NCBI GenBank assembly: GCA_037968415.1
Contig: JBBKVM010000014.1
Coordinates: forward strand, 11,954-75,953
DNA from: Bacteroidia bacterium
GTDB lineage: Bacteria; Bacteroidota; Bacteroidia; AKYH767-A; JBBKVM01
DNA length: 64,000 bases
Direction of reading: 5' to 3'
A program made the translations under genes and the position numbers. Shown piece after piece: positions 3,044 to 62,854 of the stretch; position 1 is the first letter of the stretch, and each line of letters begins with the position of its first letter. The notes beneath the pieces are model-generated. The model worked only from the letters and a program-made list of their open reading frames with translations. It searched no databases and was not told the origin of the DNA.

Positions 3044-3073
3044 AAAGCCCTCGTGAAAACGAGGGCTTTTTTT
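3044..3073 (+). terminator. Rho-independent terminator after rpsA (aaagccctcg-tgaaaa-cgagggcttt followed by a T7 run)
   Basis: Perfect 10-bp stem plus T-run immediately 3' of the rpsA stop. Confidence 0.8.
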
Positions 3074-3118
3074 ACGCCTGCTGCCGAAATTAATTTTATA
3101 TTTGTCCGGCTTTACGAT

Positions 3119-5086: not shown

Positions 5087-5117
5087 ATTTATTTATTCAA
5101 TAAGCACCCTGTGGGCC

Positions 5118-5864
5118 ATGGTAAAATTTAAAATTGTTTTGCTTTTTGTTGTTTCTGTTTTTGTGTCATCACAATTGATGGGACAGTGTGTACCTAACAC
5201 CACTATCACGGTTCCAGGAATTTATCCCGACACATTACCAGTGGCTTTAGTCGGTGCAACTTACAATGAAGTAATTCAGTTCAAGGTGCCAGTAGATACC
5301 GTGTTTCAGGGCAACAATGCCACCATCCTTAGCATCACCGTTACCGGTATGATTGGCTTGCCCGCAGGTTTTACCTACGCATGTGTTCCATCCAATTGTG
5401 TTTTTGCAGGAGGCAGTAACGGTTGTGCCGTGCTCACCGGAAACCCTACAGTAGCGCAGATCGGCCAGTATCCTTTGCGTGTCACCATTTCTATTACCGG
5501 TACAGTGATAGGAATTCCCTTTCCAATCACCATTCCTGATACGGTGAGTAAATACACACTGGTTATAAGTCAGCAAACAGGGGTGCAGATAGTGAAGAAC
5601 CGCAATTTGGAAGTAAATCAAAATTTTCCCAACCCTTCTGTAACTGCCACCACCATTGAGTTTACTGTCCCCAATGCAGCGTTGGCCGATTTCAAATTAT
5701 ACAATGTGCTTGGAAAAGAATTGTACAGCCGTACAGTAAGCGCACGCGCAGGAAAGAACACCATCAATTTTGAAACCCGCGACTACGAGCCCGGTATATA
5801 CATGTACACCATCAAAGCAGGCGATGCAGTAGTAACTCGCAGATTGATGATTGGCAGAAAATAA
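5118..5864 (+). CDS. Secreted hypothetical protein with T9SS type-A C-terminal sorting domain
   Basis: Signal peptide. C-terminus has NFPNPS...GIYMYTI...GRK, typical of the Por secretion CTD. Confidence 0.7.
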   Translation: MVKFKIVLLFVVSVFVSSQLMGQCVPNTTITVPGIYPDTLPVALVGATYNEVIQFKVPVDTVFQGNNATILSITVTGMIGLPAGFTYACVPSNCVFAGGSNGCAVLTGNPTVAQIGQYPLRVTISITGTVIGIPFPITIPDTVSKYTLVISQQTGVQIVKNRNLEVNQNFPNPSVTATTIEFTVPNAALADFKLYNVLGKELYSRTVSARAGKNTINFETRDYEPGIYMYTIKAGDAVVTRRLMIGRK

Positions 5865-26565: not shown

Positions 26566-26629
26566 TTTTCCATGCAATACATGCACTCTGTGTGCGTGAT
26601 GTATGTGCAACAATTAACTTTTTCTGATT

Positions 26630-29600: not shown

Positions 29601-31078
29601 TATACAGTTTGAAGGACTATCTCATAAAAGCGGAGCAGGTTGATCACATTGACGTGGCTGATGCAATCATTAAACCCGATAAAGGTAATGTGGTAGTGGA
29701 GCGGAATGCAAAAATGCAAACGTTGCGCAATGCTGAAATCGTTGCTGACAGAACCAACAAGTTTCACAAATTGTTCAACGCTACCATAGATATACAAGGC
29801 AAGCGAAAGTATTCAGGAAGTGCCGATTACAATTTTTTCGATCAGGCAGGCCTGCCACACCTCATAAAGTTTACTTCAGTAAGTGTAGATGACTCCACCC
29901 GCACGGTAGCTATTGGTGAAGTATATGAGCGCGATGATTTTAGCCTGAGCCCCAAGCTCAATTATAAAGGTGGAGTGAAGATGAAAGCATGGCGCCAGAA
30001 TTTAACTTTCAATGGATTTGCAAAATTAAATCTGGTATGCGAAAAATTGGAGGCCAGCTGGTTTGGATTTGATGCTGAGCTTGACCCCAAGTCATTTAAT
30101 ATTCCAATAAACAGCGCCACCCGAAATGAAAGTAATGAACAGCTATTTGCCGGCCTCATGATGTCGGCCGATACGATGGGTGTTTATCCTGTGTTTATTG
30201 GTAAGAAATTTAATCCGAAAGATCAGGAATTGATGAAAGTTGAAGGATTACTGAATCACAATCGCGACCGTAGCGAATTTGTAATAGCTCCTGAAGAAAA
30301 ACTAAAGAATCCCGAACTACCGGGTAACATGCTAGTATTGGATGAAGGACAATGTCTTATCAAAGCCCAGGGCGAACTTGCTTTGGAAACCGATCTTGGT
30401 CAGGTAAAACTTAAAAGCTATGGTAGCCTCACATACAATTTAAATAATGATTCAACCACCAGTAATGTGATGATGGTGCTTGATTTCTTTTTCAGTTCAG
30501 ATGCATTTAAGTTAATGTCGGAAAGCATTTCAATCACACCAAGACTTGAAGCGGCTAATGACAATACACCCGCCTTTAAAACTTCGCTCAGTCAATATAT
30601 GGGTGAGAAAAAAGCAACCGAATATTTGAATGACGTGAGTTTATATGGCGCTATGAAGAAGCTTCCTGATGAACTGAAAGTGGCCATGATCATATCGGAT
30701 GTAAAACTGAATTGGAACCCAAAACGAAATGCATTTGTGAGCGAAGGCCTCATCAGTATAAGTATGATAGATAAGGTGCAGGTTAGTAGAAAAATGAACG
30801 GTCTGCTGGAAGTAGCACGTAAGCGTTCGGGTGATGTGGTTACTTTGTATCTGCAGCCCACTGAACAAACGTGGTACTACTTCAGTTATACCAAAGGTGT
30901 GATGCAGGTGTTTAGTTCCGATCCTGTGTTCAATGATGCCATTCGCGATCTAAAACCAGAGAAGCGTGTGAACGACAGCAAGGATGGGAAGCCTTATCAA
31001 TTCATGCTTTCAACGGAAAGAAGAAAGACGGATTTCTTACGCAAAATAAATGAAGCCACTGTGGTGGATGAAGAGTAA
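26630..31078 (+). CDS. Very large (1482 aa) secreted hypothetical protein; AsmA/TamB-like assignment is speculative
   Basis: One uninterrupted ORF with a signal peptide, beta-rich, no recognisable catalytic motif. Lies immediately upstream of plsY. Confidence 0.7.
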   Translation: MLRTVFPILFSVCILLVSSSQAQTIKSFTPEASKYVQELENFLGETNKKETQEIIAVFKPLWMGGKFSTGMQEAVYKTSNAMLAKRMKAFPDFESYVKAMGAYVQSGQGEANFKAWHTALDQLVTGKSRTYSQFLSMSEDLFTSNILYKSSSTEWATSDRNYTFTYDSIPKITFGSMNLVCRARGDSMFVFNTSGVYMPTLETFLGLGGRVYWEKAGLSKTAAYADLSTYSLDVSKNDYTADTVSLSLADRSLFTRALTGKLQDKIVANNTPERSNYPKFESYDLSMEIKNIVKDIDYTGGFSLQGAKILGSGTPEHNAKLFIKWKAKPFMEIASQSFIIRADRISSANASVLMRYGIDSIYHPSLEMKYTVKDRELSLLTSDNLSSSPYFDSFHNLDLYFESMVWKIDDPKMDMKMITGAGENKMVLESENLFKDQRFMRVQGLSSVSPLYVIKQFAEKYSMREVYIADLAKYMKLPEHEVRSLMIMLSNNGFVSYDADDQKVIVKDRLYHYLEAKAGKKDYDVIELESIISGMPNATINLLNFDLDARGVSQLMLSDSQNVVIYPSEQEMNIHENLDFSFGGRVKAGRFDFFGKEFDFNYESFKFDLNNVDSLRMKIPEDQPGPDGRVRLVPVQSVLQNLSGDLKIDHPGNRSGRRSSAEYPIFKSAKESYVYYDRSDIYGGVYKRDRFYFTLLPFTIDSLNRITKEGMVFDGSLVSADIFPEFKEKLTLQPDYSLGFVREAPAAGFPAYKGKGKYFNTILLSNEGFKGRGYIEYLSSTLKSKKFTFFPDSTKALAEEFNVKKGPYQGVEFPAVKGREVAALWLPYFDAMNVVQKKDPIDFFEGQALLAGNLTMAPKGITAQGLMTFGQADLQANVFNFKQNSFGSDTADFRLKTDDSGTLGFATKNVKSNVDFTKRLGEFKSNGGGSYVTFPANQYICYIDEVKWYMDREVIELLSQASKGKTGETGSEFVSIHPLQDSLRFFAPLAIYSLKDYLIKAEQVDHIDVADAIIKPDKGNVVVERNAKMQTLRNAEIVADRTNKFHKLFNATIDIQGKRKYSGSADYNFFDQAGLPHLIKFTSVSVDDSTRTVAIGEVYERDDFSLSPKLNYKGGVKMKAWRQNLTFNGFAKLNLVCEKLEASWFGFDAELDPKSFNIPINSATRNESNEQLFAGLMMSADTMGVYPVFIGKKFNPKDQELMKVEGLLNHNRDRSEFVIAPEEKLKNPELPGNMLVLDEGQCLIKAQGELALETDLGQVKLKSYGSLTYNLNNDSTTSNVMMVLDFFFSSDAFKLMSESISITPRLEAANDNTPAFKTSLSQYMGEKKATEYLNDVSLYGAMKKLPDELKVAMIISDVKLNWNPKRNAFVSEGLISISMIDKVQVSRKMNGLLEVARKRSGDVVTLYLQPTEQTWYYFSYTKGVMQVFSSDPVFNDAIRDLKPEKRVNDSKDGKPYQFMLSTERRKTDFLRKINEATVVDEE

Positions 31079-35301: not shown

Positions 35302-35378
35302 GGACCCGTAGCTTAATTGGATAGAGCATCTGACTACGGATCAGAAGGTTGGGGGTTCGACTCCCTTCGGGTCCACCA
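35302..35378 (+). tRNA. tRNA-Arg (anticodon ACG)
   Basis: Hand-folded cloverleaf: acceptor GGACCCG/CGGGTCC, anticodon loop CTACGGA, T-loop TTCGACT, 3' CCA encoded. Confidence 0.85.
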
Positions 35379-35413: not shown

Positions 35414-36679
35414 TTATTTCCCAGCTCCTTCAAACTGAAAGTCAAGCGTTTTTTGATTCGAAAGGTCATCACAAACTTTAGGCGCATTGTCAAAATAGTA
35501 ATCCGGAACATTTATCTCCCACAATTTGGGTTCGTATTTGTATTTCATGGTATACAATCTGCTGGCTTTAATATATCGTGCGTCAGAAGGGTGGTCCATG
35601 ACAGCTTCTCCGAAATACATTTCGAAATTTTCGGTGAGCGTGTAAGCGCGTAAAAAAGAATTTTTGTCTGAATAATCGTATGTATAGCTGCGTAATAAAT
35701 ATTTATTCTGCCATTTGTTGTTTGTCTTTTCATAGGCAGCATGGAGGCTTCCTCTCACCAATTGCACGCGATATTTGTAATCCGCAGTCACATTATTTTC
35801 ACTTCGATAAGAGGGCTTGCGCACGTAACCAACATCAATAGAGACGATTGCATACGACTTCTTATCTACACTCATGGTGCCTTTTACTATTCTATCATCA
35901 TATGCGGCAGCCGAGTAAAAGTGAATGATATGTGTGAGTTCGTTATTCTGGTCGGCAAAACTGTATTGGACCAAATCAACCGATGAGGGATTTAACACAC
36001 TACCACGTTGTTCATACACAGGATTTTCTTCCATCAGATCGAAGAAATGATCGAGGTGCGGTTGTTCGTTGTCTTCGTAATTGAAACTTCGTCTTGTAGT
36101 GTGTATTTGAGCTGCGAACTGCGTGGTTGTTTTTTTGTTGTAATGGACAAACCGATTGAGCACATCGGCATGCGCCTCAACCAGAAAGACGTATTTGCTG
36201 TCTTTCTTGTGATACTGCCTGTAGAACACGGGCACTGAATGATCGGAGTGTCTATAATTGTCACGTATACGAGCGATGGCTTTTTTTACTATTTCGCTAG
36301 CTGAAAGGCCTACAATTTCAATAAGTGGCAGATTATGCAAAAGCACAGTTACAAATACATTTTCTATCTGCTTTCCGGTGCGCGTAAAGGCCATTGCTTG
36401 CCTGCAATTAAGTGCCGATACTTCAATGGTCAGTGTGTTTAGACTATCAGGTATGATGAATTCAAACATCCCGCTGTCGTTGCTTGCAGTGAGAATGCCG
36501 GTGTCGGTTAGCTTTACTATAGCAAAGGGTATGGGCATCGAATCAGCTTTGCTCAACAACCGGCCAGTGAACAACTTTTGGCTACAAACTTCACCAGCTA
36601 ACAAAATGAGCCCAAGTACCAACACACATTTTTTCCAGCAATTTATCATCAGGGATTTGAGTTTTTTACATCTAGCCAA
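35414..36679 (-). CDS. Secreted hypothetical protein with N-terminal carboxypeptidase-regulatory-like domain
   Basis: KLFTGRLLSKADSMPIPFAIVKLTDTGILTASNDSGMFEF matches the CarboxypepD_reg pattern. The true start may be MINCWKK at 36649. Confidence 0.65.
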   Translation of the reverse strand: MARCKKLKSLMINCWKKCVLVLGLILLAGEVCSQKLFTGRLLSKADSMPIPFAIVKLTDTGILTASNDSGMFEFIIPDSLNTLTIEVSALNCRQAMAFTRTGKQIENVFVTVLLHNLPLIEIVGLSASEIVKKAIARIRDNYRHSDHSVPVFYRQYHKKDSKYVFLVEAHADVLNRFVHYNKKTTTQFAAQIHTTRRSFNYEDNEQPHLDHFFDLMEENPVYEQRGSVLNPSSVDLVQYSFADQNNELTHIIHFYSAAAYDDRIVKGTMSVDKKSYAIVSIDVGYVRKPSYRSENNVTADYKYRVQLVRGSLHAAYEKTNNKWQNKYLLRSYTYDYSDKNSFLRAYTLTENFEMYFGEAVMDHPSDARYIKASRLYTMKYKYEPKLWEINVPDYYFDNAPKVCDDLSNQKTLDFQFEGAGK

Positions 36680-36748: not shown

Positions 36749-36879
36749 ATAATGTGGACACATTTTGCGAATCATATTTATCATTCGCTATGCACTAAAG
36801 TTGAGAATACGGGTGTTTTAAATTGTTGTTAAGTTGATTATTGGCTTTACTTTTGCGGCAGCGAAATTTTAAAACAGAG

Positions 36880-37860
36880 ATGCAGAAGAAGCAGTACATA
36901 TGGAAACTTGTGTGGGTCAACATACTGGTGTTGGCCGTGATGGTGTTTGGCATTGAGGCAGCAGTGCGGTGGACTATGCCGGGCATCAACAATCAAGGAA
37001 CGGATGGCAATTTGATGAAAGACAACCGCTACGGGGACAGTCCAGGGCTGAGGCCTGGTGCACAAGGTTTAGTTTTTGGGAAAAAAGTGCAGGTAGGAAG
37101 AGATGGATTTATAGAAACTTCGGTGCCACCTGATAGCACCAAGCCGGTGCGCCTGATATTGGGCGACAGCGTGACTATGGGCGTGGGCGTGGATGCAGAT
37201 TCATCTTTTGTAGGTCGGCTGGCCAAATATTACCAACACACTTTACGCCTGAGCAATGCTTCATTGATTGGATACAGCAACAAAGATTATTTGAATGTGG
37301 CAGAGCATCTGCTGGCCACAGATACAAAGGTGAAAGGCATTACAGTGTTTTTTTGTTTGAACGATGTGTATGAAGGAACCACTGCTGTTCCAATGATGAG
37401 CCGCAAGGGTTGGCTGGCGCCAGCATTTACATTTCTCAAACAGAACAGCAAGGCGTACATGTTTTTGAAGGGAATACTGAGCGATCGCGCCAAGGCTTAT
37501 TTTGATTTTGATTACGCTTTTTATGCAGCCAATCCTGATTTGGTAAAGCTGGCAGCAGACAGGTTAGATACGATTAATCAAGCATGCATCAAAAAAGGGG
37601 TTTCTTTCAATGTGGTTTTGTTACCCTATGAATATCAACTGCGGAATAAAGATGTAGATTCACTGCGCGCTCCACAGCACTCATTACAGTTGTTGTTGGA
37701 GGAAAGATTAATAAACGTAATGGATGCAACCGATGCGGCTGCAGAAGTGCTGCAACCTGCAGCAGAAGGGTATTTGTATGCCGATGGAATACACTTTTCC
37801 AACAGAGGCCACCTAGCCATTTCCCGGTTCATCATTGACAAAAAATTGACGGAACTCTAA
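36880..37860 (+). CDS. SGNH/GDSL-family hydrolase, membrane-anchored
   Basis: LILGDSVTMG block I motif. C-terminal DGIHFS block V. Confidence 0.75.
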   Translation: MQKKQYIWKLVWVNILVLAVMVFGIEAAVRWTMPGINNQGTDGNLMKDNRYGDSPGLRPGAQGLVFGKKVQVGRDGFIETSVPPDSTKPVRLILGDSVTMGVGVDADSSFVGRLAKYYQHTLRLSNASLIGYSNKDYLNVAEHLLATDTKVKGITVFFCLNDVYEGTTAVPMMSRKGWLAPAFTFLKQNSKAYMFLKGILSDRAKAYFDFDYAFYAANPDLVKLAADRLDTINQACIKKGVSFNVVLLPYEYQLRNKDVDSLRAPQHSLQLLLEERLINVMDATDAAAEVLQPAAEGYLYADGIHFSNRGHLAISRFIIDKKLTEL

Positions 37861-39286: not shown

Positions 39287-40945
39287 ATGAAACAATCTTA
39301 CTTTCCATTTTGTCTCAAGTTTTGCATTGCCTTGTGGTTCACTCTCATTAGTTCTTTTGCAGCGGTGCAGGCCCAATCGTGGGAGTGGGGCAGGCAAGGG
39401 GGTAGCGCTGACTTTGATTACGGAACATCTATTGCTACTGATGCTTCAGGTAATTTGTTTGTATTGGGCTCATTCCAGGGGTTTTGTTCGTTTGGTGCTA
39501 CCAATATTTTTAGCAGGGGTTTTGATGATATTCTCATAGCCAAGTACAACAGTGTGGGTGCACTGTTGTGGTTAAAAACAATTGGTAGCAGTGGCTTTGA
39601 TTCGGGCAACGGCATCGTAGTGGACCCTGCAGGATCAGTTTACATTACCGGATCAGTTAGCGACTCCGCTTATTTTGATACGCAAATTGTAACGACTGCC
39701 AGCGCAAGCGATGATATTTTTTTGGCTAAGTACGATGGCAACGGCAGCCTGATATGGGTGCGTACTGCTGGAGGGCAATTTTCCGATTATGCTTCGGCCA
39801 TTGCCACAGACAATACCGGCAATGTTTTTATCACAGGTGGATTTAGTGATGTGGCCACGTTTGCCACCAATGTCACAGTTACTGCTGCAGGATTTGATGA
39901 TGCTTTCGCGGCTGCTTATAATACAGTGGGGGCGCTCATTTGGGTGCGCCAGGCTGGCGGAACCGAATACGATTTTGGTACGGCTATAAAAACAGACCCT
40001 GCCGGTAATGTGTATGTAAGTGGGGTGTTTGATGGCACCGGTGTGTTTGGGACTTTTACCATCACAACAAGCGGCTTTGATGATATTTTCTTGTTGAAGT
40101 ACGACAATATTGGAACGCTTGCATGGGCCAAGCGCGCGGGTGGCGCGAATTACGACAGCCCCAATGCCATGGCAGTTGACAATACAGGCAGTATTTATCT
40201 GACAGGTAGTTTTATTGGCACTGCATTTTTTGATTCACAACCCATAAGCAGCGCTGGCAATGACGATATGTTTGTAGTGAAGTATAATGCCAACGGAAAC
40301 ATTGTGTGGATGCAAAGTGGTGGTGGAGGCGATTTTGATGGCGGTTATGGAATTGCATTTGACAACAACGGAAAATTATATGTGTGCGGTGGGTTTTCGG
40401 GCACCGCTACTTTTAATGCCAATAGCGTAACGAGTGTGTCGGGGTTGTTAGAGGATATTTTTATTGCGCGATATGATTTGACGGGCAATATAGATTGGGT
40501 GAAGCGTGCGGGTGGCGCTAATTCTGACTTGGCATATGGCATGGTGTGCGATGCGGCTGGCAATGCGTATGTCACAGGAAATTTTTATAACAATATAAAT
40601 TTCGGAAACCCACTGGTGTCAAATGGCTCTTCCGATTTTTTTCTGGCAAAGTTTAATCCACTGCTCGTTGGCATTGCCGACATGGGGGCATTAGGGGTAA
40701 GCTTTAGAATATATCCCAATCCAATTGTTGCAGGTGGTGTGCTTGCCATCGAACATGCAGTTGGCGAAATCAATCAGCTTCAACTTGTGGACGCATTAGG
40801 TAGGATAGTCACGCAGGTGAAGCTAAATTCGGGACTGACTTTATCTTACATGAGTTTGAATGAAACGATGCCTGGCATTTATTTTGTGCGAGTGATTTCG
40901 ACTGACGGCTCGACAGTCAATTCAGGCAAAGTGGTGGTGAGATAG
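39287..40945 (+). CDS. SBBP beta-propeller repeat protein with T9SS C-terminal sorting domain
   Basis: Repeated units (…ATDxxGNxYVTGxFxGxxxFG…DDIFLAKY…) and a terminal RIYPNPIVAGG…GIYFVRV CTD. Confidence 0.75.
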   Translation: MKQSYFPFCLKFCIALWFTLISSFAAVQAQSWEWGRQGGSADFDYGTSIATDASGNLFVLGSFQGFCSFGATNIFSRGFDDILIAKYNSVGALLWLKTIGSSGFDSGNGIVVDPAGSVYITGSVSDSAYFDTQIVTTASASDDIFLAKYDGNGSLIWVRTAGGQFSDYASAIATDNTGNVFITGGFSDVATFATNVTVTAAGFDDAFAAAYNTVGALIWVRQAGGTEYDFGTAIKTDPAGNVYVSGVFDGTGVFGTFTITTSGFDDIFLLKYDNIGTLAWAKRAGGANYDSPNAMAVDNTGSIYLTGSFIGTAFFDSQPISSAGNDDMFVVKYNANGNIVWMQSGGGGDFDGGYGIAFDNNGKLYVCGGFSGTATFNANSVTSVSGLLEDIFIARYDLTGNIDWVKRAGGANSDLAYGMVCDAAGNAYVTGNFYNNINFGNPLVSNGSSDFFLAKFNPLLVGIADMGALGVSFRIYPNPIVAGGVLAIEHAVGEINQLQLVDALGRIVTQVKLNSGLTLSYMSLNETMPGIYFVRVISTDGSTVNSGKVVVR

Positions 40946-41051
40946 AAAAACGCCTGCAGTCTAGGTGTGCTTCGGATAGTGGAAAGGAATCTAGGATTGG
41001 ATTGCGTTGAGCACACGCGAAAATAGTCCTGCAGGCGAATGATTTTTCACT

Positions 41052-42110
41052 TCATTTAATTATTATTTTTTGAGTTATCAATTCATTGATTCCGGATACA
41101 CTTACCAGGTATGCACCTGCGCGCAAGCCATCTATTTCTATTTCTAACACATCCCATTCCTGTGATTCGACAAGCTGATGTTTTGCCAACACACCATCCA
41201 ACTTCACTATGTCAATTTGATACGGACCTTCGCGCAGACCAGTAACATGCAATTTGCCACCAAGCAATATTGTTGGATAAATAGTAATGGCAGATACATA
41301 TTCATGGCATGCTACAACTACTTTGCTCAGTGTGGATTTGCCATCGAAATCTGTTTGCATTAGTTGGTAGTAATTATTTCCTGCCACCGGCTGAGCATCA
41401 GCAACTACGTATTTTATTTGATGGTTGCTATTGCCCGCGCCCATCACACGAATTAATGCATCATAGTTTTTGCCATCTGCAGATTTTAAAATTGTGAAAT
41501 AGTGATTGTTTGTCTCAGTGGCGGTGGCCCAGCGCAATTCGATTCCTTCGCGTTTATCAATAGCTTCAAAGTATAGCAGGTTGATGGGCAAGGGTACAGG
41601 TTGCCTTACACACGCGGTAATGTCGTTGTCTTTTATCTGCCAAAACCTATTTGTTGCCGTGGTTTTTAGAATAATCTGAATTACCAGATTGCCACCCGCA
41701 GGCACATAAATGCTGTCAGAAAGAGTATACACTCTTGTTGAAACTGTATCGCCCCTAATTGTGTTGTTGAATACAAGTACCCCGTTGATGTAATATCGAA
41801 TCCACGCAAAATCGCTAGATGTCAGATTACCACTTTGGTTGATGCGTATTTCCGTGGTAATTAAAGTGGATTCACCGCCTACAGTTCCTCCTACATTTAT
41901 TTGTGGCGAAGTAAATATGCAGGAATCATTCTTGACGGTCCATTGGGCCGGATTGATTGTTGGAATGGCAATGGTGCCGCACGATACAATATAAGTTGAA
42001 GGGACTTTCCAATCAAGTTTATAGCTATTGTTGGCACATTGGCTGCTTGCTTGAAATGTTCCAAACAATAAAAGCGTAAAAGTGAAGAGTCTGTGCAACT
42101 TTGATTTCAT
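41052..42110 (-). CDS. T9SS-secreted hypothetical protein with internal LLYFEA/FN3-like module
   Basis: Signal peptide. Module LPINLLYFEAIDKREGIELRWATATETNNHYFTI…QTDFDGKS. C-terminal type-A CTD-like beta domain. Confidence 0.65.
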   Translation of the reverse strand: MKSKLHRLFTFTLLLFGTFQASSQCANNSYKLDWKVPSTYIVSCGTIAIPTINPAQWTVKNDSCIFTSPQINVGGTVGGESTLITTEIRINQSGNLTSSDFAWIRYYINGVLVFNNTIRGDTVSTRVYTLSDSIYVPAGGNLVIQIILKTTATNRFWQIKDNDITACVRQPVPLPINLLYFEAIDKREGIELRWATATETNNHYFTILKSADGKNYDALIRVMGAGNSNHQIKYVVADAQPVAGNNYYQLMQTDFDGKSTLSKVVVACHEYVSAITIYPTILLGGKLHVTGLREGPYQIDIVKLDGVLAKHQLVESQEWDVLEIEIDGLRAGAYLVSVSGINELITQKIIIK

Positions 42111-42287
42111 GACGCCATGTTTTTAACATTCGTTTACTCATCGTTACTGACTTTTCTGATTGCTTTAATAATTTACTGCCGCTTTGCCGTTCATGCAAAT
42201 CAAATTGACCAACACAACAGATGCATTGGCTAATTTCTATAAAGGTTGGGTAAAAGTTTTGAAAATTGGTTAGACGGAAATATTTTC

Positions 42288-42869
42288 CTATCGCTTAAAA
42301 AATTTGAATTGGGTTGTTCCACCAAGCGCATAGCGCAAGGCAAATGCTATTTCTACATGCTCGGGACCCGGATTTACAAGGTCGAAAAATGGAGCGGCTT
42401 CAATGCTTATGGTGAGCGGTGCAACGCTTAGTGGATATTCTAGCCCTACCAGCGCATCCACACCTATACTGATGCCGCTGCCATAATAGGCATCCTTTTC
42501 TCCATTTTTTACTCTGTAATATCCTTCTTTGTAAAAAGCACCGTGTAAACCCGCTCCCACGAAATAGTCAAGAGGTATTTGAAGAATCTTATTAAAAAAT
42601 GGACGTTGATGAACGTAAAAGAATGTGGTCATTAAGGTGCCGAAATTTTTCTTTACGGTTACATTGGCTTCAATAGCGTTGCTGTTTGTGTTTCCGAAAA
42701 AATATTTTCCGCTCAACCCGGAAGAAAATTTTCCGCCCTTTATTCCCAGGCTCATCACATAGCCTCTATCTGCTTGTGCACTCGCTTCATATGTGCCTAC
42801 CATTAACAAAGCAGCAAAGAAAACTGCGGTGAAAATTATTTTGTATTTATTGAAAGAAGAGAAATGCAT
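42288..42869 (-). CDS. Small outer-membrane beta-barrel protein (OmpA-N/OmpW-like)
   Basis: Signal peptide and amphipathic beta strands. Confidence 0.6.
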   Translation of the reverse strand: MHFSSFNKYKIIFTAVFFAALLMVGTYEASAQADRGYVMSLGIKGGKFSSGLSGKYFFGNTNSNAIEANVTVKKNFGTLMTTFFYVHQRPFFNKILQIPLDYFVGAGLHGAFYKEGYYRVKNGEKDAYYGSGISIGVDALVGLEYPLSVAPLTISIEAAPFFDLVNPGPEHVEIAFALRYALGGTTQFKFFKR

Positions 42870-42927
42870 TCGGATTATTTCAACATGTGAATTACGAAAT
42901 TATAACAATAGTGCCGTTATGCCAATA

Positions 42928-44727
42928 TTATTTGACTAAAACTTTTTGATTTTTACTCCCATTCTCTGTATGGGCGGTAAATACGTATAGTCCTTTTGCC
43001 AATGACACATCGGGTTCTATAATCATTTGTACCACTCCCGAACCACCTGTTTCGATGTGCTGAGAATAAATTAATCGGCCAGTCAAATCCTTAATGGTCA
43101 AGTCAATTCCTGCTTCCCGCCCTGAATTGGCGACCATTGTAAAATGGCTGCCGTCAGATGGGTTGGGAACAATCATGAATATGTCTTTGTTCGATATATT
43201 TTTAACTGGTGCAATGTTGCTTAATGAGGTTTTTCCATCAAAATCGGTTTGGCGCAATCTGTAATATGACATGCCGGGCAGTGGGTTTTCATCTAAAGTT
43301 TCGTAGCTCAAAGTATGTTGACTATTGCCTGCCCCAGCCATTGATTGAATAGGCTCAAAATTATGACCATCGTGAGATCGCTCAATCGTATAAAAATTAT
43401 TATTGGTTTCTGAAGCAGTGGCCCAGTTAAGTTTTACTTGCCCATTGCTCAATTGGGCATCAAAGTATAGTAGCTCAATTGGTAGAGGGAACAAAGGTAA
43501 GCAGTTAACAGAAGCACCCGGTCCTTTGGGGTCTGCTGGTACGAATATGCAGTTCAAATACATGCGTCTGCCGTTTATTTTATCTGCCTGTGGGCCGCCA
43601 CCATAATCGTGTCCTCCAAGGTAGAATGCATTTCCTCCTGCAATATTATTTGGTAATCTTTTCACACCACTGGCCACATCATGCACTCCATCACCCGATC
43701 CCACTACACGATAGTATATCGGATGATAACTACTACCTGCACTCAAAGCCCAATTGCGCAAACTACCACCTATTGTACTTAATGTTCCATGAAACTGAGC
43801 GTAAGGCATATCATAATTATAGTAATTGTAAGTGATGTTGGCGTTGATACGATCAATACCTCCGGTGGTCATAAGCATGTCATCATCTTCATAGGTCTCA
43901 ACACCTTCGCATTGGGCAAGAAAATTTGATCCATTCAGCAAAAAACGATTTATGGCATATGTATGCAATGTATCAGGCCCGGCATCCCAATGAGGTTCGC
44001 TGGCAAATGTGTAGCAACCGCCCCAGTCAATTACTTCAACCGCTGGAATCACCGTAACCCATGGTCCATAGTGTGTGGTGGTTTGCGTGACTTCTGGAGT
44101 GATGGTAGTATCAGTGCCTGAAATCACAGTATCCGCTGGAGTGATTATCGCGGTGGTCGTCCAAATTGAATCAATGAAGCCTGCTTCTTGCAAATAGCTT
44201 ATATGAATGTTTTGGTTGCCTCCATTGCTGAGAACGGCAATATTGGGTTTGAAAATAAGTCGATATCGGATGTCTACACTCAGCCATTGTGTAACTCGGT
44301 ACACAGCCACATCATTGGCATATGGGCCAATCACTGCGCGCGCCAGGTTAGCGTGGGCACTGTCAACAATAAATGGCCCTGAGCGGAAATTGAGGGTGGT
44401 GATTGATTGAATAGTGGGATATTCACGTTGAACCGTAGCAGTGAAATCAATGCCGTTGTATAATTTACCTGAGCGTATGGCCCATTTTACCGGTATCCCC
44501 GCTTGTAATAGCTTGTTAACCAAACCATAAGACTTTAAATTGAATCTGCCCGGTACTGCCTGCGTGCTGTTATCCATGCCTATCACCAGTGAACCGGTAG
44601 GTATGTACTGCATACTCTGCCAAGGTCCGGCAAGGTCGTTTTGGGCCTTTAATGTGCTACTTGCCACTACTATGAGGCAAATAAGGATAAATGTTGTTAC
44701 TTTTTTAATTTGAATGGCGACCATCAT
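42928..44727 (-). CDS. T9SS-secreted hypothetical protein (599 aa) with the same LLYFDA/FN3-like module plus a type-A CTD
   Basis: Module LPIELLYFDAQLSNGQVKLNWATASETNNNFYTIERSHDG…QTDFDGKTS, paralogous to the module in the 41052 gene. Terminal IVPNPSDG…GLYVF…VLVK CTD. Confidence 0.7.
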   Translation of the reverse strand: MMVAIQIKKVTTFILICLIVVASSTLKAQNDLAGPWQSMQYIPTGSLVIGMDNSTQAVPGRFNLKSYGLVNKLLQAGIPVKWAIRSGKLYNGIDFTATVQREYPTIQSITTLNFRSGPFIVDSAHANLARAVIGPYANDVAVYRVTQWLSVDIRYRLIFKPNIAVLSNGGNQNIHISYLQEAGFIDSIWTTTAIITPADTVISGTDTTITPEVTQTTTHYGPWVTVIPAVEVIDWGGCYTFASEPHWDAGPDTLHTYAINRFLLNGSNFLAQCEGVETYEDDDMLMTTGGIDRINANITYNYYNYDMPYAQFHGTLSTIGGSLRNWALSAGSSYHPIYYRVVGSGDGVHDVASGVKRLPNNIAGGNAFYLGGHDYGGGPQADKINGRRMYLNCIFVPADPKGPGASVNCLPLFPLPIELLYFDAQLSNGQVKLNWATASETNNNFYTIERSHDGHNFEPIQSMAGAGNSQHTLSYETLDENPLPGMSYYRLRQTDFDGKTSLSNIAPVKNISNKDIFMIVPNPSDGSHFTMVANSGREAGIDLTIKDLTGRLIYSQHIETGGSGVVQMIIEPDVSLAKGLYVFTAHTENGSKNQKVLVK

Positions 44728-44993: not shown

Positions 44994-45893
44994 CTATTTG
45001 GCTCTTGGGTGGTAACGAAGTATAGCATCGCGCAGAAACTCGCGATCGAGATGGGTATATATCTCAGTTGTGGTGATCGACTCGTGCCCCAGCATTTCCT
45101 GCACCGCGCGTAAGTCAGCTCCGCCTTCTATCAAGTGTGTGGCAAATGAATGTCGGAATGTGTGGGGGCTAATTTTCTTTTTCAGGCCGATTTTATTTGC
45201 AAGATCTTTTATAATTATAAATACCATAACCCGGCTCAACGCACCCCCCAATCTGTTTAAGAACAAAATATCAACGCTCGCATCTTTGATTTTTTGCAAA
45301 AGGCGCACTTCGTTTTTGTAGATGCCAATATATTTCAGGGCCACACTACCAATGGGAACCAAGCGCTCTTTGTCGCCTTTGCCCATCACTTTTACAAATC
45401 CAATGTCACCATATATGTTGGATATTTTGAGTGAAACCAATTCTGAAACGCGCAAGCCACAGCTATAAAGTGTTTCAATAATAGCTTTGTTTCTCACTCC
45501 ATCAGGTGTGCTTTGGTCAATGGCATCTACCAGCGCATCTATTTCTGCAATCGACAATGTATCGGGAAGTTTTCGGCCCAGTCTTGGGGTTTCCAACAGT
45601 TCTGTAGGGTCGTTTTTTATTAAGTTTTCGAGCAGCATGTATTTGTAAAACGATCGGATGCCCGATATGATGCGCGATTGAGAGCGGCCATTTATCCCCT
45701 CCTTATGCAAACTTTCCAAAAATCCTTGAAGCTCTTTGAGTGTAATCGCTTCTGGTTTTGTAGGTATTTCGGCCTGCTTTAAGTAATCTTGAAACTTACG
45801 GATATCGTGCTCATACGACTGGATTGAGTTCTTCGCAAGCGATCGCTCGAGCTTCAAATAGCTGATGAATCCTTTGATATAACTATCCCACAT
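44994..45893 (-). CDS. xerD: Tyrosine recombinase XerD (chromosome dimer resolution)
   Basis: Catalytic R…HxxR…Y signature (HTFRHSFATHL…EIYTH). Paired with aroQ, not with phage genes. Confidence 0.9.
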   Translation of the reverse strand: MWDSYIKGFISYLKLERSLAKNSIQSYEHDIRKFQDYLKQAEIPTKPEAITLKELQGFLESLHKEGINGRSQSRIISGIRSFYKYMLLENLIKNDPTELLETPRLGRKLPDTLSIAEIDALVDAIDQSTPDGVRNKAIIETLYSCGLRVSELVSLKISNIYGDIGFVKVMGKGDKERLVPIGSVALKYIGIYKNEVRLLQKIKDASVDILFLNRLGGALSRVMVFIIIKDLANKIGLKKKISPHTFRHSFATHLIEGGADLRAVQEMLGHESITTTEIYTHLDREFLRDAILRYHPRAK

Positions 45894-45960
45894 GGTTGCT
45901 CACTTCAAATTGATTGTTACAATGTTAGTAATTTGTGGGTCATTCGAATTGAATTGCCAG

Positions 45961-46401
45961 ATGAAACCACAAATTATAATTATTAACGGTCCAAACCTCA
46001 ATTTGGTGGGCACGCGAGAACCACACTTGTATGGGGTAGATGCGTTCGAAGATTTTATTCCCCGATTGAGACAAGCATATCCCCAATTTGAACTTGAGTA
46101 CTATCAATCAAATGTGGAAGGAGAGCTGATTAACAAATTACAAGGAGTGGGATTTAAATATGCGCTGATCTTGCTCAATGCTGGCGGCTACACACACACT
46201 TCGGTAGCAATTGGCGATGCGGTGGCGGCAATCAGTACTCCGGTTTATGAGGTGCACATTTCCAATGTATTTGCACGCGAATCCTACCGCCACCATTCAT
46301 TTATCACGCCCCACGCGCTGGGCCTTGTGTGTGGGTTTGGGTTGCAATCCTACGCGTTGGCCCTTGAGCATTTTTTGCAATTAGATTTATCAACCAAATA
46401 G
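45961..46401 (+). CDS. aroQ: Type II 3-dehydroquinate dehydratase
   Basis: IIIINGPNLNLLG, AGGYTHTSVA and HISNVFARE motifs. Start chosen at MKPQIII. Confidence 0.92.
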   Translation: MKPQIIIINGPNLNLVGTREPHLYGVDAFEDFIPRLRQAYPQFELEYYQSNVEGELINKLQGVGFKYALILLNAGGYTHTSVAIGDAVAAISTPVYEVHISNVFARESYRHHSFITPHALGLVCGFGLQSYALALEHFLQLDLSTK

Positions 46402-47655
46402 TAGTTTGAAGTAAAAGAGTGGGTTGGTTAAGCGCGAACGCAACTCGATGTCATCAAACATACACATCAAAGTTTCTTCCAGTACTTTATTTTTTTCGGC
46501 TTTGTTGGCGATTATATTAAAGAGCCAAGGAACCTCCACCATCTTCTGCAGGGTACTACTAAGCTTTAGTTCACTCCACAATCTTGAATACACCGCTTCA
46601 TCATACTGCTTTAATAGGGCCGATGAATAATCCTTTTCTGAAACACATTTCACTGCCATTTCACCAGCCTTTACACCCGATATCATTGCGTTGCTAATGC
46701 CTTCTCCCGTAAAGGGATCGATAAGCGAACCTGCATCTCCCACCAGCATATAGCCCGCTCCTGAAAGAGGCCTGCGCCTGTTGCCCAGCGGCAATCCCCA
46801 CCCTTGCACTGGTGATAACAATTGAGCGTGTTCAAACCTAGGCCGTATTTCTTTATGGTGTTCAATAAGATTTGCAAACAGGGATTTTAAATTCACTTTG
46901 TTCTTACTCACCTTACTGCTCAACATGCCCAAACCGACATTGGCCATTCCTCCTGCCATAGGAAATATCCAGAAGTAGCCGGGCAATGCTTCTTTTAAAA
47001 AATGAAGTTCGATAAAATTATTTTGGTGCATGCCACTCACATTTTTGTAGTAGGCGCGCAAGCCTGCGCAGTAACTCTCAGGATTTTTTTTGAAACCACC
47101 CAAATCGCGCGCTACGGCCGAGCGTTCGCCCTCTGCGCCTATCACCAGCCTCGTGCGGATGTAAATCACCTCATTGTTTGAGACACATTCCAGAATTATG
47201 TAGCTAGCCTCACGCGTCACTTTCTTAATGGTGACACCGCATAAACGTTTTGCGAAAGCTGATTCTGTTTTTTGGTATAGGTAATTATCAAAGGCCAGGC
47301 GCGGGCTCACATAACCCGGTGGATTCGATTGTTCGTTGTTCTGCTTAAAAGGGATCTCTAATGACTTTCCGTTGGGTGCCACAAATTTTACACCATAGCT
47401 TCCAAGAAAATTCTCTTTATTACCTAACATCTCATTAGCCGATTCAGCGCGTAACCGCTTCAGCACCGACATCACTTTTCCGCTCAGCGCATCGCCACAC
47501 ACTTTGTCGCGCGGAAACACTGCTTTGTCAATCAACAAGTGACTCACACCATGATCGGAAAGCACCATGCTCGTGGTGCTGCCTCCTGGGCCGGCCCCGA
47601 TTATAACCACCTGCTCGTCATAGGCAAAAGGATGCGCTCCAATTGTTTCGGTCAC
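46390..47655 (-). CDS. Geranylgeranyl reductase-family FAD-dependent oxidoreductase
   Basis: VVIIGAGPGG dinucleotide motif. LVGDAGSLIDPFTGEGI. Confidence 0.85.
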   Translation of the reverse strand: MTETIGAHPFAYDEQVVIIGAGPGGSTTSMVLSDHGVSHLLIDKAVFPRDKVCGDALSGKVMSVLKRLRAESANEMLGNKENFLGSYGVKFVAPNGKSLEIPFKQNNEQSNPPGYVSPRLAFDNYLYQKTESAFAKRLCGVTIKKVTREASYIILECVSNNEVIYIRTRLVIGAEGERSAVARDLGGFKKNPESYCAGLRAYYKNVSGMHQNNFIELHFLKEALPGYFWIFPMAGGMANVGLGMLSSKVSKNKVNLKSLFANLIEHHKEIRPRFEHAQLLSPVQGWGLPLGNRRRPLSGAGYMLVGDAGSLIDPFTGEGISNAMISGVKAGEMAVKCVSEKDYSSALLKQYDEAVYSRLWSELKLSSTLQKMVEVPWLFNIIANKAEKNKVLEETLMCMFDDIELRSRLTNPLFYFKLLFG

Positions 47656-48671
47656 TTTGATATAAAGTCTTGCGGGTTCAATTGATCGAATCGTTTTGTG
47701 CCACGCGCAAAATATTCAAAAACAATATTACGCTGGTATACACCTGCCGGATAATTATTAATTCCCTTTTGCCGATTACGTAGCAGACCTCTTATTTTTC
47801 GGTATAAAGAAAAATGCGCACGCACCACTGCGAACATATGTTTTAATCCTCCTGTAAACAAAAAGCGTAAAGCAGCCACACCATCAAGTACCAAGCGCAC
47901 AAAGAGCACCGCAAATATTTCACTGTCAGGCAGATTTTTAACTAACATCATCAAATTGTTGCGAATGTTCAAATAAGTCTTTCGACTGCTATACTTGTTA
48001 AGTGTGCCTCCTCCTACATGATAAACAGTAGATGTTGGTACGTACATGATTTTATGTCCATCGTTATGCATCCGCCAGCATAAATCAATCTCTTCCATGT
48101 GAGCAAAAAATGATTCATCAAATCCGCCTAGTTTTTTGAACACTTCCGTACGCACCATCATACATGCTCCGGTTGCCCAAAATATTTCCCTCACATCGTT
48201 ATACTGACCGTGATCAGACTCCAGTGTGTCAAACATCCTCCCACGGCAAAATGGATATCCCAGCCTGTCGATAAATCCCCCTGCTGCACCAGCGTATTCA
48301 AACTTGCTCCGTTCATGCCACGACAATATTTTTGGTTGGCATGCAGCCACCAAAGCATCGCTTTTCATCATCTCAACTAATGGTTCAAGCCATCCGGCAG
48401 TCACTTCCACATCCGAATTCAATAATAGCAGGTATTCATCATCTACGTTTGCAAGCGATTTGTTGTAACCACCTGCAAAACCATAATTTTTATCATTTGA
48501 AATCACCTCTACTTGAGGAAAAGTTTTCGAAATACATTCTATCGAAGAGTCGGTAGATGCGTTATCTGCCACTATTACACGTGCGCCCAAAGAATATTCG
48601 AGCACTTTCGGCAAAAAAGTTTCCAACAACTTGACTCCGTTCCAATTGAGAATCACCACTGCTACTGACAT
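47652..48671 (-). CDS. Glycosyltransferase family 2
   Basis: VVILNWNG, ADNASTD, LLLLNSDVEV (DXD) and FDESFFAHMEEIDLCWR motifs. Confidence 0.88.
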   Translation of the reverse strand: MSVAVVILNWNGVKLLETFLPKVLEYSLGARVIVADNASTDSSIECISKTFPQVEVISNDKNYGFAGGYNKSLANVDDEYLLLLNSDVEVTAGWLEPLVEMMKSDALVAACQPKILSWHERSKFEYAGAAGGFIDRLGYPFCRGRMFDTLESDHGQYNDVREIFWATGACMMVRTEVFKKLGGFDESFFAHMEEIDLCWRMHNDGHKIMYVPTSTVYHVGGGTLNKYSSRKTYLNIRNNLMMLVKNLPDSEIFAVLFVRLVLDGVAALRFLFTGGLKHMFAVVRAHFSLYRKIRGLLRNRQKGINNYPAGVYQRNIVFEYFARGTKRFDQLNPQDFISK

Positions 48672-48854
48672 GCTATCGTACGGCTTGTATGAGCGCCAAA
48701 AGTATTAATTCCATATGAGTAATTGGAAGTAGAGAAAATGCCAAAAAAGAATGGGCCGAAAACCGCTAAGGGAAACAAACCATAACCTTATAAGTTTTCA
48801 GCCCAAAAAAATGTGTTACTACTAGCTTAACGATTCAGACCTGATAATATTTTC

Positions 48855-50321
48855 TTATCGCGGCATATCAAACAACAGGTTCGACTTGCTGCCAAAATGA
48901 TCCTCTACGCGCTCAGTGTCAAAGTCTCTGGACTGATTGTCTCGCTTCATTATTTTCATTTGCCATCTGGGGTCGTTTACCTCACCCAATGCATCCGAAT
49001 GAATCAACTGAAAATCGTTGGTAACCAAATCAGGATTGTAGAAAATAAATTTACGGTTGCTTTGATTATCGAGTTTGTAATAGTGCCAGATCTCATAAGG
49101 ATAGGCACTGGGCTCGCTCAGTTTTTGAGCTATGCTATTGGGAGCACCATATTTCAAATAAACGCGTCCCCTGTCAGTCTCATAACCACGCATGATGCGG
49201 GTGCTATATGATTCATTTACTTTTTGAACTTGCTTGGCATATTCGAGCCATGCCATTTCGGGATTCGTAGGGTTCTTTCGTTCCCAAAAGCTGTAGAAGA
49301 ATTTTTGCATCATTTCCACATTGCTTATGTCCAATTGATTGTCGGCAAAAGCTACTTCGCGATTATTAGAGATGGGTCTTATGGAACTTATATAGTCTTT
49401 AAGTTGCGATTCGGTGGTGTAGTTTTGTACAAATGTGTTGTTGATGTTCACTAGACTGTAATCGTTTGATTCATTATCTGCAACCATGGTATTGCTTCGC
49501 TGAAAAAACTGTTCCTTAAAAGTGATAAGGTCATTCTTCTTGTTTCGCACTTCCACTGTCAGTAGATAGTTTCCTGATGGCAGTTCGCCAATCGGTATGT
49601 TGCCAATGATAGGATTTACATCATTTGGGTTTTGCTTGATGAATGACTTATATTTTTCAATAATTCTTTTCGTTTCGAAAGAGGATATGTAATAATTTAC
49701 CAGATAGCTCTCTTGCTTAAATACCTCACTAGTATTGTACACTTCTGCATAAAACTTTAAATCACTGGTTTTTTGTGGATAAAAGTTTGCCACCAAGGGT
49801 ACCATGTCATAGCCACTTTTTGCAATTAACGATTGGGAGGCTGCCGGGCCATAGTGATCCACCAATTCGATATCAGATATCGCCACAATATTTGGATGAT
49901 ATTCAATTTTTATCTCTTGCTTTGATGTAAAAGGAACCTTGGTTCCATGCGCATCGCTAATGGAAACCTCCATTGTATACTTACCATTAGCAAGCAGAAA
50001 TCGTTGTTGGTCAATGAAGCTAAAAGCGGTTGATTTTGGGTCGGCAACCTCAGGGCTCAGCAAATTGTATTTCTCAAAAGCTTTTACTGTTTCACCAGAT
50101 TTAAACACAATTGTTACCTGAATCTTGCTTTGATACTGGCCACTTTCGTTCATTACAAATTCAACACTTTCTCCTTTCACCGACAAATATGTTTCAACAT
50201 AAGGTCCTGTAGTGGGTGAATAAAAAGTTGAATAGGCCAACATTGCTTGCAGGCTTTTTGATCCGGCATGAGCTGTAACGGCCATGCAACAAATACAAAA
50301 TGAGATAATTAACTTTTTCAT
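48855..50321 (-). CDS. GWxTD-domain secreted protein (tentative family assignment)
   Basis: Signal peptide. C-terminal …SYSTRIMRGYETDRGRVYLKYGAPNSI… resembles the GWxTD domain. Confidence 0.65.
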   Translation of the reverse strand: MKKLIISFCICCMAVTAHAGSKSLQAMLAYSTFYSPTTGPYVETYLSVKGESVEFVMNESGQYQSKIQVTIVFKSGETVKAFEKYNLLSPEVADPKSTAFSFIDQQRFLLANGKYTMEVSISDAHGTKVPFTSKQEIKIEYHPNIVAISDIELVDHYGPAASQSLIAKSGYDMVPLVANFYPQKTSDLKFYAEVYNTSEVFKQESYLVNYYISSFETKRIIEKYKSFIKQNPNDVNPIIGNIPIGELPSGNYLLTVEVRNKKNDLITFKEQFFQRSNTMVADNESNDYSLVNINNTFVQNYTTESQLKDYISSIRPISNNREVAFADNQLDISNVEMMQKFFYSFWERKNPTNPEMAWLEYAKQVQKVNESYSTRIMRGYETDRGRVYLKYGAPNSIAQKLSEPSAYPYEIWHYYKLDNQSNRKFIFYNPDLVTNDFQLIHSDALGEVNDPRWQMKIMKRDNQSRDFDTERVEDHFGSKSNLLFDMPR

Positions 50322-50443
50322 GGCATTGATATTTGGGTGTATTTAAAGTTACGAATCTTTAGGGTTTATTCAAAAGGCTGATCTTTTTCAAATTTTTGGC
50401 TTGGCATGAAATGCGATTCATAAAAAATAGTACTTTTGCGCCC

Positions 50444-50531
<88 letters not shown>

Positions 50532-61753: not shown

Positions 61754-62854
61754 ATGGCATTAAAATGTGGTATCGTTGGATTACCCAATGTGGGCAAGTC
61801 AACATTGTTTAATTGTTTGAGCAATGCAGTAGCGCAAGCAGCTAATTTTCCGTTCTGCACTATTGAACCCAATATTGGCACCATCACCGTTCCAGACGAC
61901 CGGTTGAATAAGCTCGAAGAACTTGTGAAACCACAACGCGTAGTGCCCACTACTATTGAAATAGTGGACATTGCCGGGTTGGTGAAAGGTGCGAGCAAAG
62001 GCGAGGGCTTGGGCAATCAGTTTCTGGCCAATATCCGCGAGACAGATGCCATCATACATGTAGTGCGCTGTTTCGAAGACCCCAATGTGGTGCACGTGGA
62101 TGGATCAGTAAATCCGGTGCGCGACAAAGAGACGATTGATTACGAGCTTCAACTGAAAGACCTCGACAGTGTGATGAAAAAAATACAGAAGGTGGAGAAG
62201 TTGGCAAAGACGGGTACCGACAAAGAAGCCAAAAAAGCATTTGACGTATTGATGGTGTATAAAACACATCTGGAATCGGGGCAGGCCGCACGGAGTGCAC
62301 CAGTAGCACCCGAAGATCGCAAGTATGTGGCAGATGCATATTTGCTCACCGACAAACCTGTTTTGTATGTATGCAATGTGGATGAAGGATCGGTGACGAC
62401 AGGCAATAAATATGTGGATGAGCTGAAGGAATCAATCAAGAATGAAAACGCGGAAGTATTGGTGATTGCCGCAGCCATCGAAGCCGAAATAGCACAACTC
62501 GATAGCTACGAAGACCGTAAAGTTTTTTTAGAGGAATTGGGGTTGCAAGAATCAGGAGTAAGTAAATTGATCACCGCAGCATATCGGTTATTGAGATTGT
62601 CAACCTATTTTACCGCAGGCGAAAAGGAAGTGCGCGCATGGACAATCACCACGGGTATGAAAGCGCCTGAAGCCGCAGGTGTGATACATAGCGATTTCGA
62701 AAAAGGATTTATCAGAGCAGAAGTAATAGGGTTCAATGACTTTGTGAAACTTGGCTCAGAGCAGGCGTGCAAAGAAGCAGGCCGCTTGTCAGTAGAAGGA
62801 AAAGAGTATGTGGTGAGTGACGGAGATGTGATGCATTTCCGCTTCAACGTATAA
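61754..62854 (+). CDS. ychF: Ribosome-binding redox-regulated ATPase YchF
   Basis: [16 protein letters not shown]-loop, TGS C-terminal domain, 366 aa. Confidence 0.95.

Follow-up and report, generated by a model that had tools for sequence, protein, structure and literature searches.

How should a run of four genes for secreted proteins, packed into about 5.4 kb of the chromosome of an uncultured Bacteroidia bacterium, be understood: as one surface locus with a common origin, or as a set of separate genes that came to lie side by side? The run occupies positions 39287 to 44727 of a 64,000-nt stretch of contig JBBKVM010000014.1 (assembly GCA_037968415.1; hereafter, the window) and encodes three predicted type IX secretion system (T9SS) cargo proteins, each ending in a T9SS C-terminal domain (CTD), and one small outer-membrane protein (OMP). 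A sequence-only reading of this DNA had described it as a coherent surface or adhesin locus, in which a module shared by the two cargo proteins on the minus strand pointed to an old duplication. In our analysis, three genes for T9SS type A cargo and one for a small OMP probably just follow one another on the chromosome, and the block is not an adhesin operon that duplication produced; export, attachment, enzymatic activity, and glycan binding of the products are what we infer. The three cargo proteins are of the ordinary T9SS type A kind, the shared module has a known fold and constitutes an uncatalogued sequence family, and the OMP family is the most novel part. Genes for T9SS cargo are numerous in Bacteroidota genomes, and the block in itself is ordinary.

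Results

Three T9SS type A cargo genes and a small OMP gene

The translations place all four open reading frames (ORFs) exactly where they had been described. On the plus strand, positions 39287 to 40945 encode a 552-amino-acid (aa) protein with a signal peptide, SBBP beta-propeller repeats (six, Pfam E = 4e-30), and a CTD, as recognized by Pfam and NCBIfam models. The other three genes lie on the minus strand: a 352-aa cargo protein (41052 to 42110) with a signal peptide, a Cys-rich jelly-roll domain, a fibronectin type III (FN3)-like module, and a CTD; a 193-aa small secreted protein (42288 to 42869), probably an outer-membrane beta-barrel of ~8 strands; and a 599-aa cargo protein (42928 to 44727) with a signal peptide, a class I glutamine amidotransferase (GATase1)-like domain, an FN3-like module, and a CTD, as resolved from an AlphaFold model and homologues. 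The gap from the 599-aa cargo gene to the OMP gene is 58 bp, and that from the OMP gene to the 352-aa gene is 177 bp.

That all three larger proteins are T9SS type A cargo, as the sequence-only reading had it, holds on two features. Their hydrophobic N-termini, read by eye from the translations, end in AVQAQ, QASSQ, and LKAQ, as signal peptides do, and a type A CTD is found at each C-terminus. The CTD of the 552-aa protein (40709 to 40942, plus strand) scores above both curated cut-offs (31.3 bits versus 27 for PF18962 and 44.1 versus 23 for TIGR04183); that of the 599-aa protein (aa 514 to 599; 42931 to 43188, minus strand) passes TIGR04183 (27.3 versus 23) and fails PF18962 (21 versus 27); and that of the 352-aa protein (aa 277 to 352; 41055 to 41282, minus strand) lies narrowly under the TIGR04183 cut-off (22.2 versus 23). 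The three proteins are thus T9SS type A cargo and predicted to be exported to the surface; one point that counts against this context is that no T9SS core gene lies within the 64-kb window. Two further matches were discarded as noise: one between the 352-aa protein and a T9SS sortase N-terminal model (E = 0.004, 17 bits versus a cut-off of 40), which reflects its signal peptide, and one to PilY2 in Pfam (E = 0.01, under the cut-off). By the established T9SS route, each cargo protein would be exported by its Sec signal peptide, its C-terminal beta-sandwich CTD would then be recognized at the outer-membrane translocon and cleaved off, and the protein would end up anchored on the outside of the cell. 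The steps that type A cargo undergoes once translocated are a subject of continuing research.

Synteny of the block

Related loci separate the four genes into those that travel together and those that do not. The window and its relative L001 share a backbone of GWxTD, glycosyltransferase family 2 (GT2), geranylgeranyl-reductase-like, aroQ, and xerD genes, with a major facilitator superfamily (MFS) gene beyond the cargo genes. The order xerD, cargo, OMP, and MFS recurs in L001, L002, L089, and L096, with an OMP 63% identical to that of the window; in L001, L089, and L096, the cargo is GATase-like, and the OMP gene is followed, with no gene in between, by the MFS gene on the opposite strand. In L098, the OMP gene is preceded by a CTD fragment and followed by the same MFS gene. 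None of L001, L089, and L096 has the SBBP or the 352-aa gene at that position, whereas in the window both are inserted there. L001 also has MgtC and DoxX genes between xerD and the cargo gene that the window does not have.

The cargo-OMP pair is present in L006 as well and is conserved within the clade (50 to 63% aa identity). In GCA_037969175.1, the assembly with the closest homologues, this pair (L006) and the homologue of the 352-aa protein (L005) are encoded on different contigs, and the latter, the closest relative of the 352-aa gene, adjoins pheT and recG. The 352-aa homologue is preceded (positions 1 to 201 of L005, contig JBBKWX010000053.1) by a C-terminal fragment of another CTD protein (E = 7e-8 with a local CTD hidden Markov model [HMM]), which indicates that cargo genes cluster there too, in a different neighborhood. 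Because only the 599-aa and OMP genes are syntenic (L001, L089, L096, and L006), the block is not one conserved locus: as a whole it is not core among relatives, the SBBP and 352-aa genes are lineage-specific additions, and the claim of a coherent surface or adhesin locus goes too far on this ground.

The cargo block sits in a conserved chromosomal backbone with no obvious island, as shown by the collinearity of positions 44994 to 50342 with L001. This stretch is a housekeeping run of xerD (minus strand), aroQ (plus), and genes for a geranylgeranyl-reductase-like protein, a GT2, and a GWxTD-domain protein (all minus). No integrase-associated island features were seen around the block, the sole tyrosine recombinase being the syntenic xerD, and the GC content of the block (0.40 to 0.45) is the same as that of the remainder of the window. 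Scans for promoters and terminators, including the Bacteroidota -7 motif TAnnTTTG, gave no excess over shuffled expectation and no support for operon boundaries; the sole regulatory leads are a -7 motif 21 bp 5′ of where the SBBP gene starts and, in the gap that separates the OMP gene from the 352-aa gene, a weak hairpin. All four block proteins are singletons in a protein-cluster look-up.

An OMP family next to T9SS genes

The signal peptide of the 193-aa product ends in ASAQA, and the protein contains no Cys and shows repeated amphipathic beta segments. It belongs to a family of 33 detectable members of ~170 aa, with no Pfam or NCBIfam assignment, whose invariant motifs are GKFSSG, IPLD, and NPGPE and whose C-terminus reads RYVF-x. 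The amphipathic strands and the terminal RYVF-x make an outer-membrane beta-barrel likely. Profile matches lend the barrel call made earlier little: the window protein has no Pfam match at E ≤ 10, OMP_b-brl (PF13505) matches one homologue at E = 0.1, and CglE, a myxobacterial barrel, matches 10 of 32 members, at best with E = 0.0015. A metagenome scan with the OMP alignment returned 6 loci only.

Wherever the context can be read, the gene immediately upstream of the OMP gene is gldN or encodes CTD cargo, on the same strand and with a short gap between the two. The upstream gene is gldN, with which the porP-gldK-gldL-gldM-gldN cluster ends, in L088, the contig labeled P0331, and L090 (OMPs 56% to ~42% identical to that of the window); a GATase-like type A CTD cargo gene in the window, L001/L002, L006, L089, and L096; a BNR/PKD CTD cargo gene in L086/L087, L093, and L094; another FN3-like+CTD cargo gene in L095; and a CTD fragment in L097, within another neighborhood, and in L098, which has the same downstream MFS/SnoaL synteny. 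In L090 (positions 1 to 3366; JGI Ga0247727_10055421), gldM and gldN are followed, after ~700 bp, by two tandem small OMP genes, and this interval contains a short tandem DNA repeat (at about 1600 to 1980) that is repetitive in all reading frames. Among the 80 loci that encode the GATase-like family, only one has this OMP gene nearby, which ties the OMP to the T9SS in general and not to that cargo family.

Gene association of this kind makes it about an even call that the family is an undescribed T9SS-associated barrel. At least six largely independent contexts, all of them T9SS related, are hard to explain by chance. Two considerations pull the other way: the link is guilt by association across ~15 loci, many of them phylogenetically related, and frequent CTD genes raise the chance level, perhaps to 5 to 10% per context. 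These same considerations feed the alternative, which we regard as rather unlikely, namely that the 193-aa protein is some small porin or structural OMP of a generic kind, placed beside T9SS genes by coincidence or through synteny that was simply inherited. In its favor, CTD cargo genes are common (5 among the ~55 genes of the window), a number of the contexts belong to genomes that are close relatives of one another, the OMP is rare beside GATase-like genes, and the family has no sequence similarity to known T9SS components. A generic OMP, however, would not be expected to have T9SS-related genes as all of its readable upstream neighbors, always on the same strand and at a short distance, or to keep this company across three or more cargo architectures and the three gldN-adjacent cases, whose OMPs have diverged so far; and with a base rate of at most ~10%, chance is an unlikely source of six or more independent contexts.

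If the family is indeed T9SS associated, it may act as an accessory outer-membrane component that, by analogy, could anchor or assist cargo or tether the ring. Tentatively, the ancestral site of the OMP gene would be after gldN, at the end of gldKLMN, with recruitment beside type A cargo genes in some lineages, and the protein would be a cargo helper or anchor, as PorP/SprF are, or a ring tether, as PorG is. Literature searches found nothing on a gene downstream of gldN, nor on an amidotransferase-like T9SS cargo.

The amidotransferase-like head of the 599-aa protein

The N-terminal halves of the two minus-strand cargo proteins had been called unrecognizable, and it is true that no sequence model matches them; their folds, however, are recognizable, as GATase1-like in the 599-aa protein and as a jelly roll in the 352-aa protein. 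In the former (AlphaFold model, pLDDT 89.5), residues 32 to 402 (43522 to 44634, minus strand) form a class I glutamine-amidotransferase-like alpha/beta domain that passes a test for the GATase1 (flavodoxin-like) fold. None of the GATase, Peptidase_C26, DJ-1/PfpI, and ThuA models in Pfam and NCBIfam matches the query or 48 family members, the N-domain has no sequence match in the PDB, and the head receives no Pfam assignment in 48 of 48 members. A Foldseek search of the full 599-aa model against the PDB returned mostly tandem FN3 and immunoglobulin (Ig) domains with low TM-scores and nothing on the N-domain.

The head family comprises 407 homologues, from which we used one alignment of 111 sequences (A1) and one set of 48 (A5). 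Residues C273, H246, Q311, N268, G266, and G364 are invariant in the 111 sequences, and H373 shows no variation among the 48 and is kept in at least 90% of the 111; the conservation of the Cys/His pair persists in sequences that are only ~30% identical. The codons of Cys273 (43909 to 43911) and His373 (43609 to 43611), both on the minus strand, were verified in the DNA. In the model, C273 sits between strand 268-272 and helix 274-283, the nucleophile-elbow position, and H373 follows strand 366-370, at the catalytic His site of GATases. Given an invariant Cys at the elbow and a (near-)invariant His, we lean toward the head being a surface-displayed Cys-His enzyme, an amidohydrolase or acyl-transferase, an assignment drawn from residue conservation and from positions in the modeled secondary structure. 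Candidate substrates could be glutamine, gamma-glutamyl, or peptide amide bonds, for example. His246 (in the motif SEPH) and Gln311, invariant beside Cys273 and His373, may form an oxyanion hole, bind substrate, or take part in a Cys-Gln cross-link. Invariant Cys273 and Gln311, together with fusions to adhesin stalks, also raised the idea of a thioester-like domain; the fold is that of GATase1 and not of a thioester domain, and the idea is unsupported.

The third member of a catalytic triad speaks against an enzyme: in GGHDYGG, position +2 is occupied by Tyr or Phe, the canonical Glu being absent, and no conserved acidic third residue was identified, with D374 not conserved in the 111-sequence alignment. 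The missing acidic residue would fit a noncatalytic binding or scaffold domain (such as ThuA-like domains, GldG/IFT52, and GH42 trimerization domains) within a protein that functions as an adhesin, as would the C-terminal parts to which the family is fused: besides FN3-like+CTD and CarboxypepD_reg, these include the adhesin-type stalks DUF11, SdrD_B, cadherin-like, and PKD+SprB+CHU_C (a type B CTD). We nevertheless consider a noncatalytic head doubtful. Cys273 is invariant exactly at the elbow and His373 is nearly so, across relatives in metagenome-assembled genomes labeled as Bacteroidota, Gammaproteobacteria, Verrucomicrobia, Acidobacteria, and delta-proteobacteria, and noncatalytic relatives typically lack the Cys.

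The jelly-roll head of the 352-aa protein

Residues 25 to 170 of the 352-aa protein (41601 to 42038, minus strand) form an N-terminal beta-jelly-roll with a fold like that of carbohydrate-binding modules (CBMs) and MAM domains. Its family is small (~25 full-length homologues), with conserved Cys residues and a common motif, RINQSGNL. In the most economical reading, the protein is probably a glycan-binding surface protein with a disulfide-rich head; that the argument proceeds from the fold by itself tells against this assignment.

A widespread FN3-like module before the CTD

Between head and CTD, both minus-strand cargo proteins contain the ~90-aa module noted from the sequence, at residues 172 to 266 of the 352-aa protein (41313 to 41597, minus strand) and residues 413 to 508 of the 599-aa protein (43204 to 43491, minus strand). 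The aligned region runs from residues 414 to 506 of the latter and 173 to 265 of the former, with the signature LP(V/I).L..F.A / W.T..E.NN..F.IERS.DG / YYRL.Q.D.DG. Module and CTD together align at 35% identity (BLASTP E = 1e-30), and the modules alone at 48% aa identity; at the DNA level, ~57% of the columns are identical between the two copies, close to the 60% or so first reported. The module passes a fold test as a seven-strand beta-sandwich superposable on FN3 domains, which answers the question, raised earlier, of whether it is FN3- or Ig-like. Against Pfam and NCBIfam, it matches no annotated family, with nothing even at E ≤ 10 beyond noise (SusE, 0.024; F5_F8_type_C, 0.033), and proteins with nine copies have no Pfam domain over any of them. 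The outcome that the sequence-only reading had named as its refutation, a widely annotated module of known role in a block that is core in all relatives, was thus not observed.

The distribution of the module was followed at two scales. A local HMM, built from the two window copies and iterated over 164 sequences (mostly homologues of the 599-aa and 352-aa proteins, with the queries themselves counted), finds the module in 137 of them, always as a single copy, and finds only these two copies in the 64-kb window, with no match in the SBBP cargo. In all but a few of the 137 (the exceptions include two truncated sequences), the module ends ~85 to 104 aa before the C-terminus and thus stands directly before the CTD. 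When a profile of 79 module sequences (A4) was searched against 1.84 billion representative proteins, 135,088 clusters matched with E ≤ 1e-3, and 100,461 still did so with E ≤ 1e-10. The best 150 of the 135,088 representatives carry arrays of 2 to 21 copies by the local HMM and up to ~32 stretches by the server count; in 147 of these top representatives, a terminal CTD was found in 68, in 46 of which the last module abuts it, and none was detected in the other 79.

The module is therefore a widespread, mobile, and uncatalogued FN3-like domain. Ancient divergence, the part of the duplication claim that stands, is accompanied by a distribution that removes the local part: in a comparison of each window copy with 78 modules, the other window copy ranks only 12th and 6th, behind modules in proteins of other organisms. 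The size of the family, the lack of a mutual nearest relationship between the window copies, and the unrelated N-terminal folds together indicate that the module did not arise by duplication within the locus. Its most likely role would be that of a rigid spacer or stalk, which would hold the N-terminal head off the surface and off the CTD-processing site; elsewhere, the same domain may form stalks of up to ~30 tandem copies.

An alternative function, that the module belongs to an extended secretion or attachment signal (for example, by presenting the cleavage site to the PorU sortase), would explain why its distance from the C-terminus is so nearly fixed among the 137 carriers and why its sequence is better conserved than that of the CTD. 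We judge this improbable, given that the SBBP cargo and the two other CTD ORFs of the window do without the module, that internal arrays occur among the top 150 representatives, more than half of which (79 of 147) have no detected terminal CTD, and that RgpB and similar studied cargo proteins have other Ig-like domains before their CTDs. Least probable of all, and very unlikely in our view, is a coherent adhesin locus whose minus-strand genes are ancient paralogues duplicated in place: the adjacency of the 599-aa and 352-aa genes on one strand, the similarity of module and CTD, a DNA identity that fits an old event, and the predicted surface location of all products agree with it, but a GATase1-like head and a jelly roll are unrelated folds, over 100,000 clusters contain the module, neither copy has its closest relative in this locus, and the 352-aa and SBBP genes are missing here in relatives, the closest 352-aa homologue lying instead beside pheT and recG.

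Other features of the window

Two further ORFs end in a type A CTD, at 5064 to 5861 (plus strand; PF18962, 37.4 bits) and at 62847 to 63998 (minus strand; PF18962, 29.2 bits); in both, the remainder has no Pfam match, and neither has the FN3-like module. Upstream of the block are a 421-aa protein (35414 to 36679, minus strand) with a weak CarboxypepD_reg-like N-domain (E = 2.6e-4, under the cut-off) and a GDSL/SGNH hydrolase-like protein (36841 to 37860, plus strand); a GDSL lipase head likewise occurs in P0165, one of the top multicopy FN3-module proteins elsewhere. A large, uncharacterized ORF of 1486 aa (26618 to 31075, plus strand) has no Pfam match at E ≤ 0.001. The flanks also contain genes for tRNA-Arg(ACG) (35302 to 35378, plus strand; ~4 kb from the block) and tRNA-Ser(TGA) (50444 to 50531, plus strand; ~6 kb).

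Discussion

Ordinary as a run of cargo genes, the block leads to three protein families of wider reach. Neither Pfam nor NCBIfam has a model for an FN3-like domain that over 100,000 clusters contain, and such a model would improve the annotation of a large fraction of Bacteroidota surface proteins. Extracellular GATase-like heads with a retained Cys/His pair, spread over multiple phyla, point to an uncharacterized class of surface enzymes. Finally, the barrel family linked to gldN and to cargo genes is a specific candidate, open to testing, for an accessory component that the T9SS is still missing.

Each part of the block has counterparts among known systems. Type A CTD cargo (Por_Secre_tail PF18962/TIGR04183) is exemplified by RgpB of Porphyromonas gingivalis, mirolase of Tannerella forsythia, and NucA of Flavobacterium johnsoniae. 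Compared with these, two of the three block CTDs are at or below the curated cut-offs, and neither a GATase1-like nor a CBM-like jelly-roll head was found as T9SS cargo in the literature searched. The shared module resembles FN3 domains at the fold level (Ihog FN3, 2ic2; the FN3-like domain of the beta-1,2-glucanase BDI_3064, 5z06) but is matched neither by Pfam fn3 nor by any other model in Pfam or NCBIfam, and it makes up a very large sequence family of its own, which favors the place immediately ahead of the CTD. The jelly-roll head shares its fold with CBM61 (2xom), CBM16 (2zew), CBM4, Fbs1, the Kgp K1 adhesin, and MAM domains, at only 4 to 11% identity; it matches no CBM family, and the likeness is one of fold.

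The head of the 599-aa protein shares the flavodoxin-like alpha/beta fold of class I GATases and their kin (PabA, HisH, PurQ, and the GuaA N-domain; MetA; gamma-glutamyl hydrolase C26; ThuA-like proteins), with a Cys that follows a beta-strand where a helix begins and a His in the loop into which a late core strand leads. Unlike these cytoplasmic enzymes, it is extracellular, being predicted to be exported by the T9SS; it is also larger (~370 aa, with large insertions at residues 93 to 121, 189 to 227, and 291 to 356), lacks an HPE-type His-x-Glu motif and any sequence-level match, and has the additional invariant residues H246 and Q311.

For the OMP, two known T9SS barrels bear comparison. 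PorG is an 8-strand barrel with a conserved C-terminal Cys that is disulfide-bonded to PorK, and its gene lies in a uppS-bamA-skp cluster (PMC12365241). The block OMP is not PorG, since it has no Cys, its gene neighbors are cargo and MFS genes, and it has no NCBIfam match; like PorG, it is predicted to be a small outer-membrane barrel, and the link of the OMP family to PorK/N (GldK/N) ring genes suggests a similar location. PorP/SprF proteins are ~300-aa, 14-strand, FadL-like barrels (PF11751) that serve type B CTDs and are encoded beside cargo genes (PMC9143113). With 193 aa and no match to PF11751, the block OMP is not one of these either. What it has in common with PorP/SprF is a predicted barrel gene immediately beside a T9SS cargo gene; in addition, PorP begins the porP-porK-L-M-N operon, and genes of the OMP family follow gldN. 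It differs in that its family is ~170 aa long and paired with type A CTD cargo.

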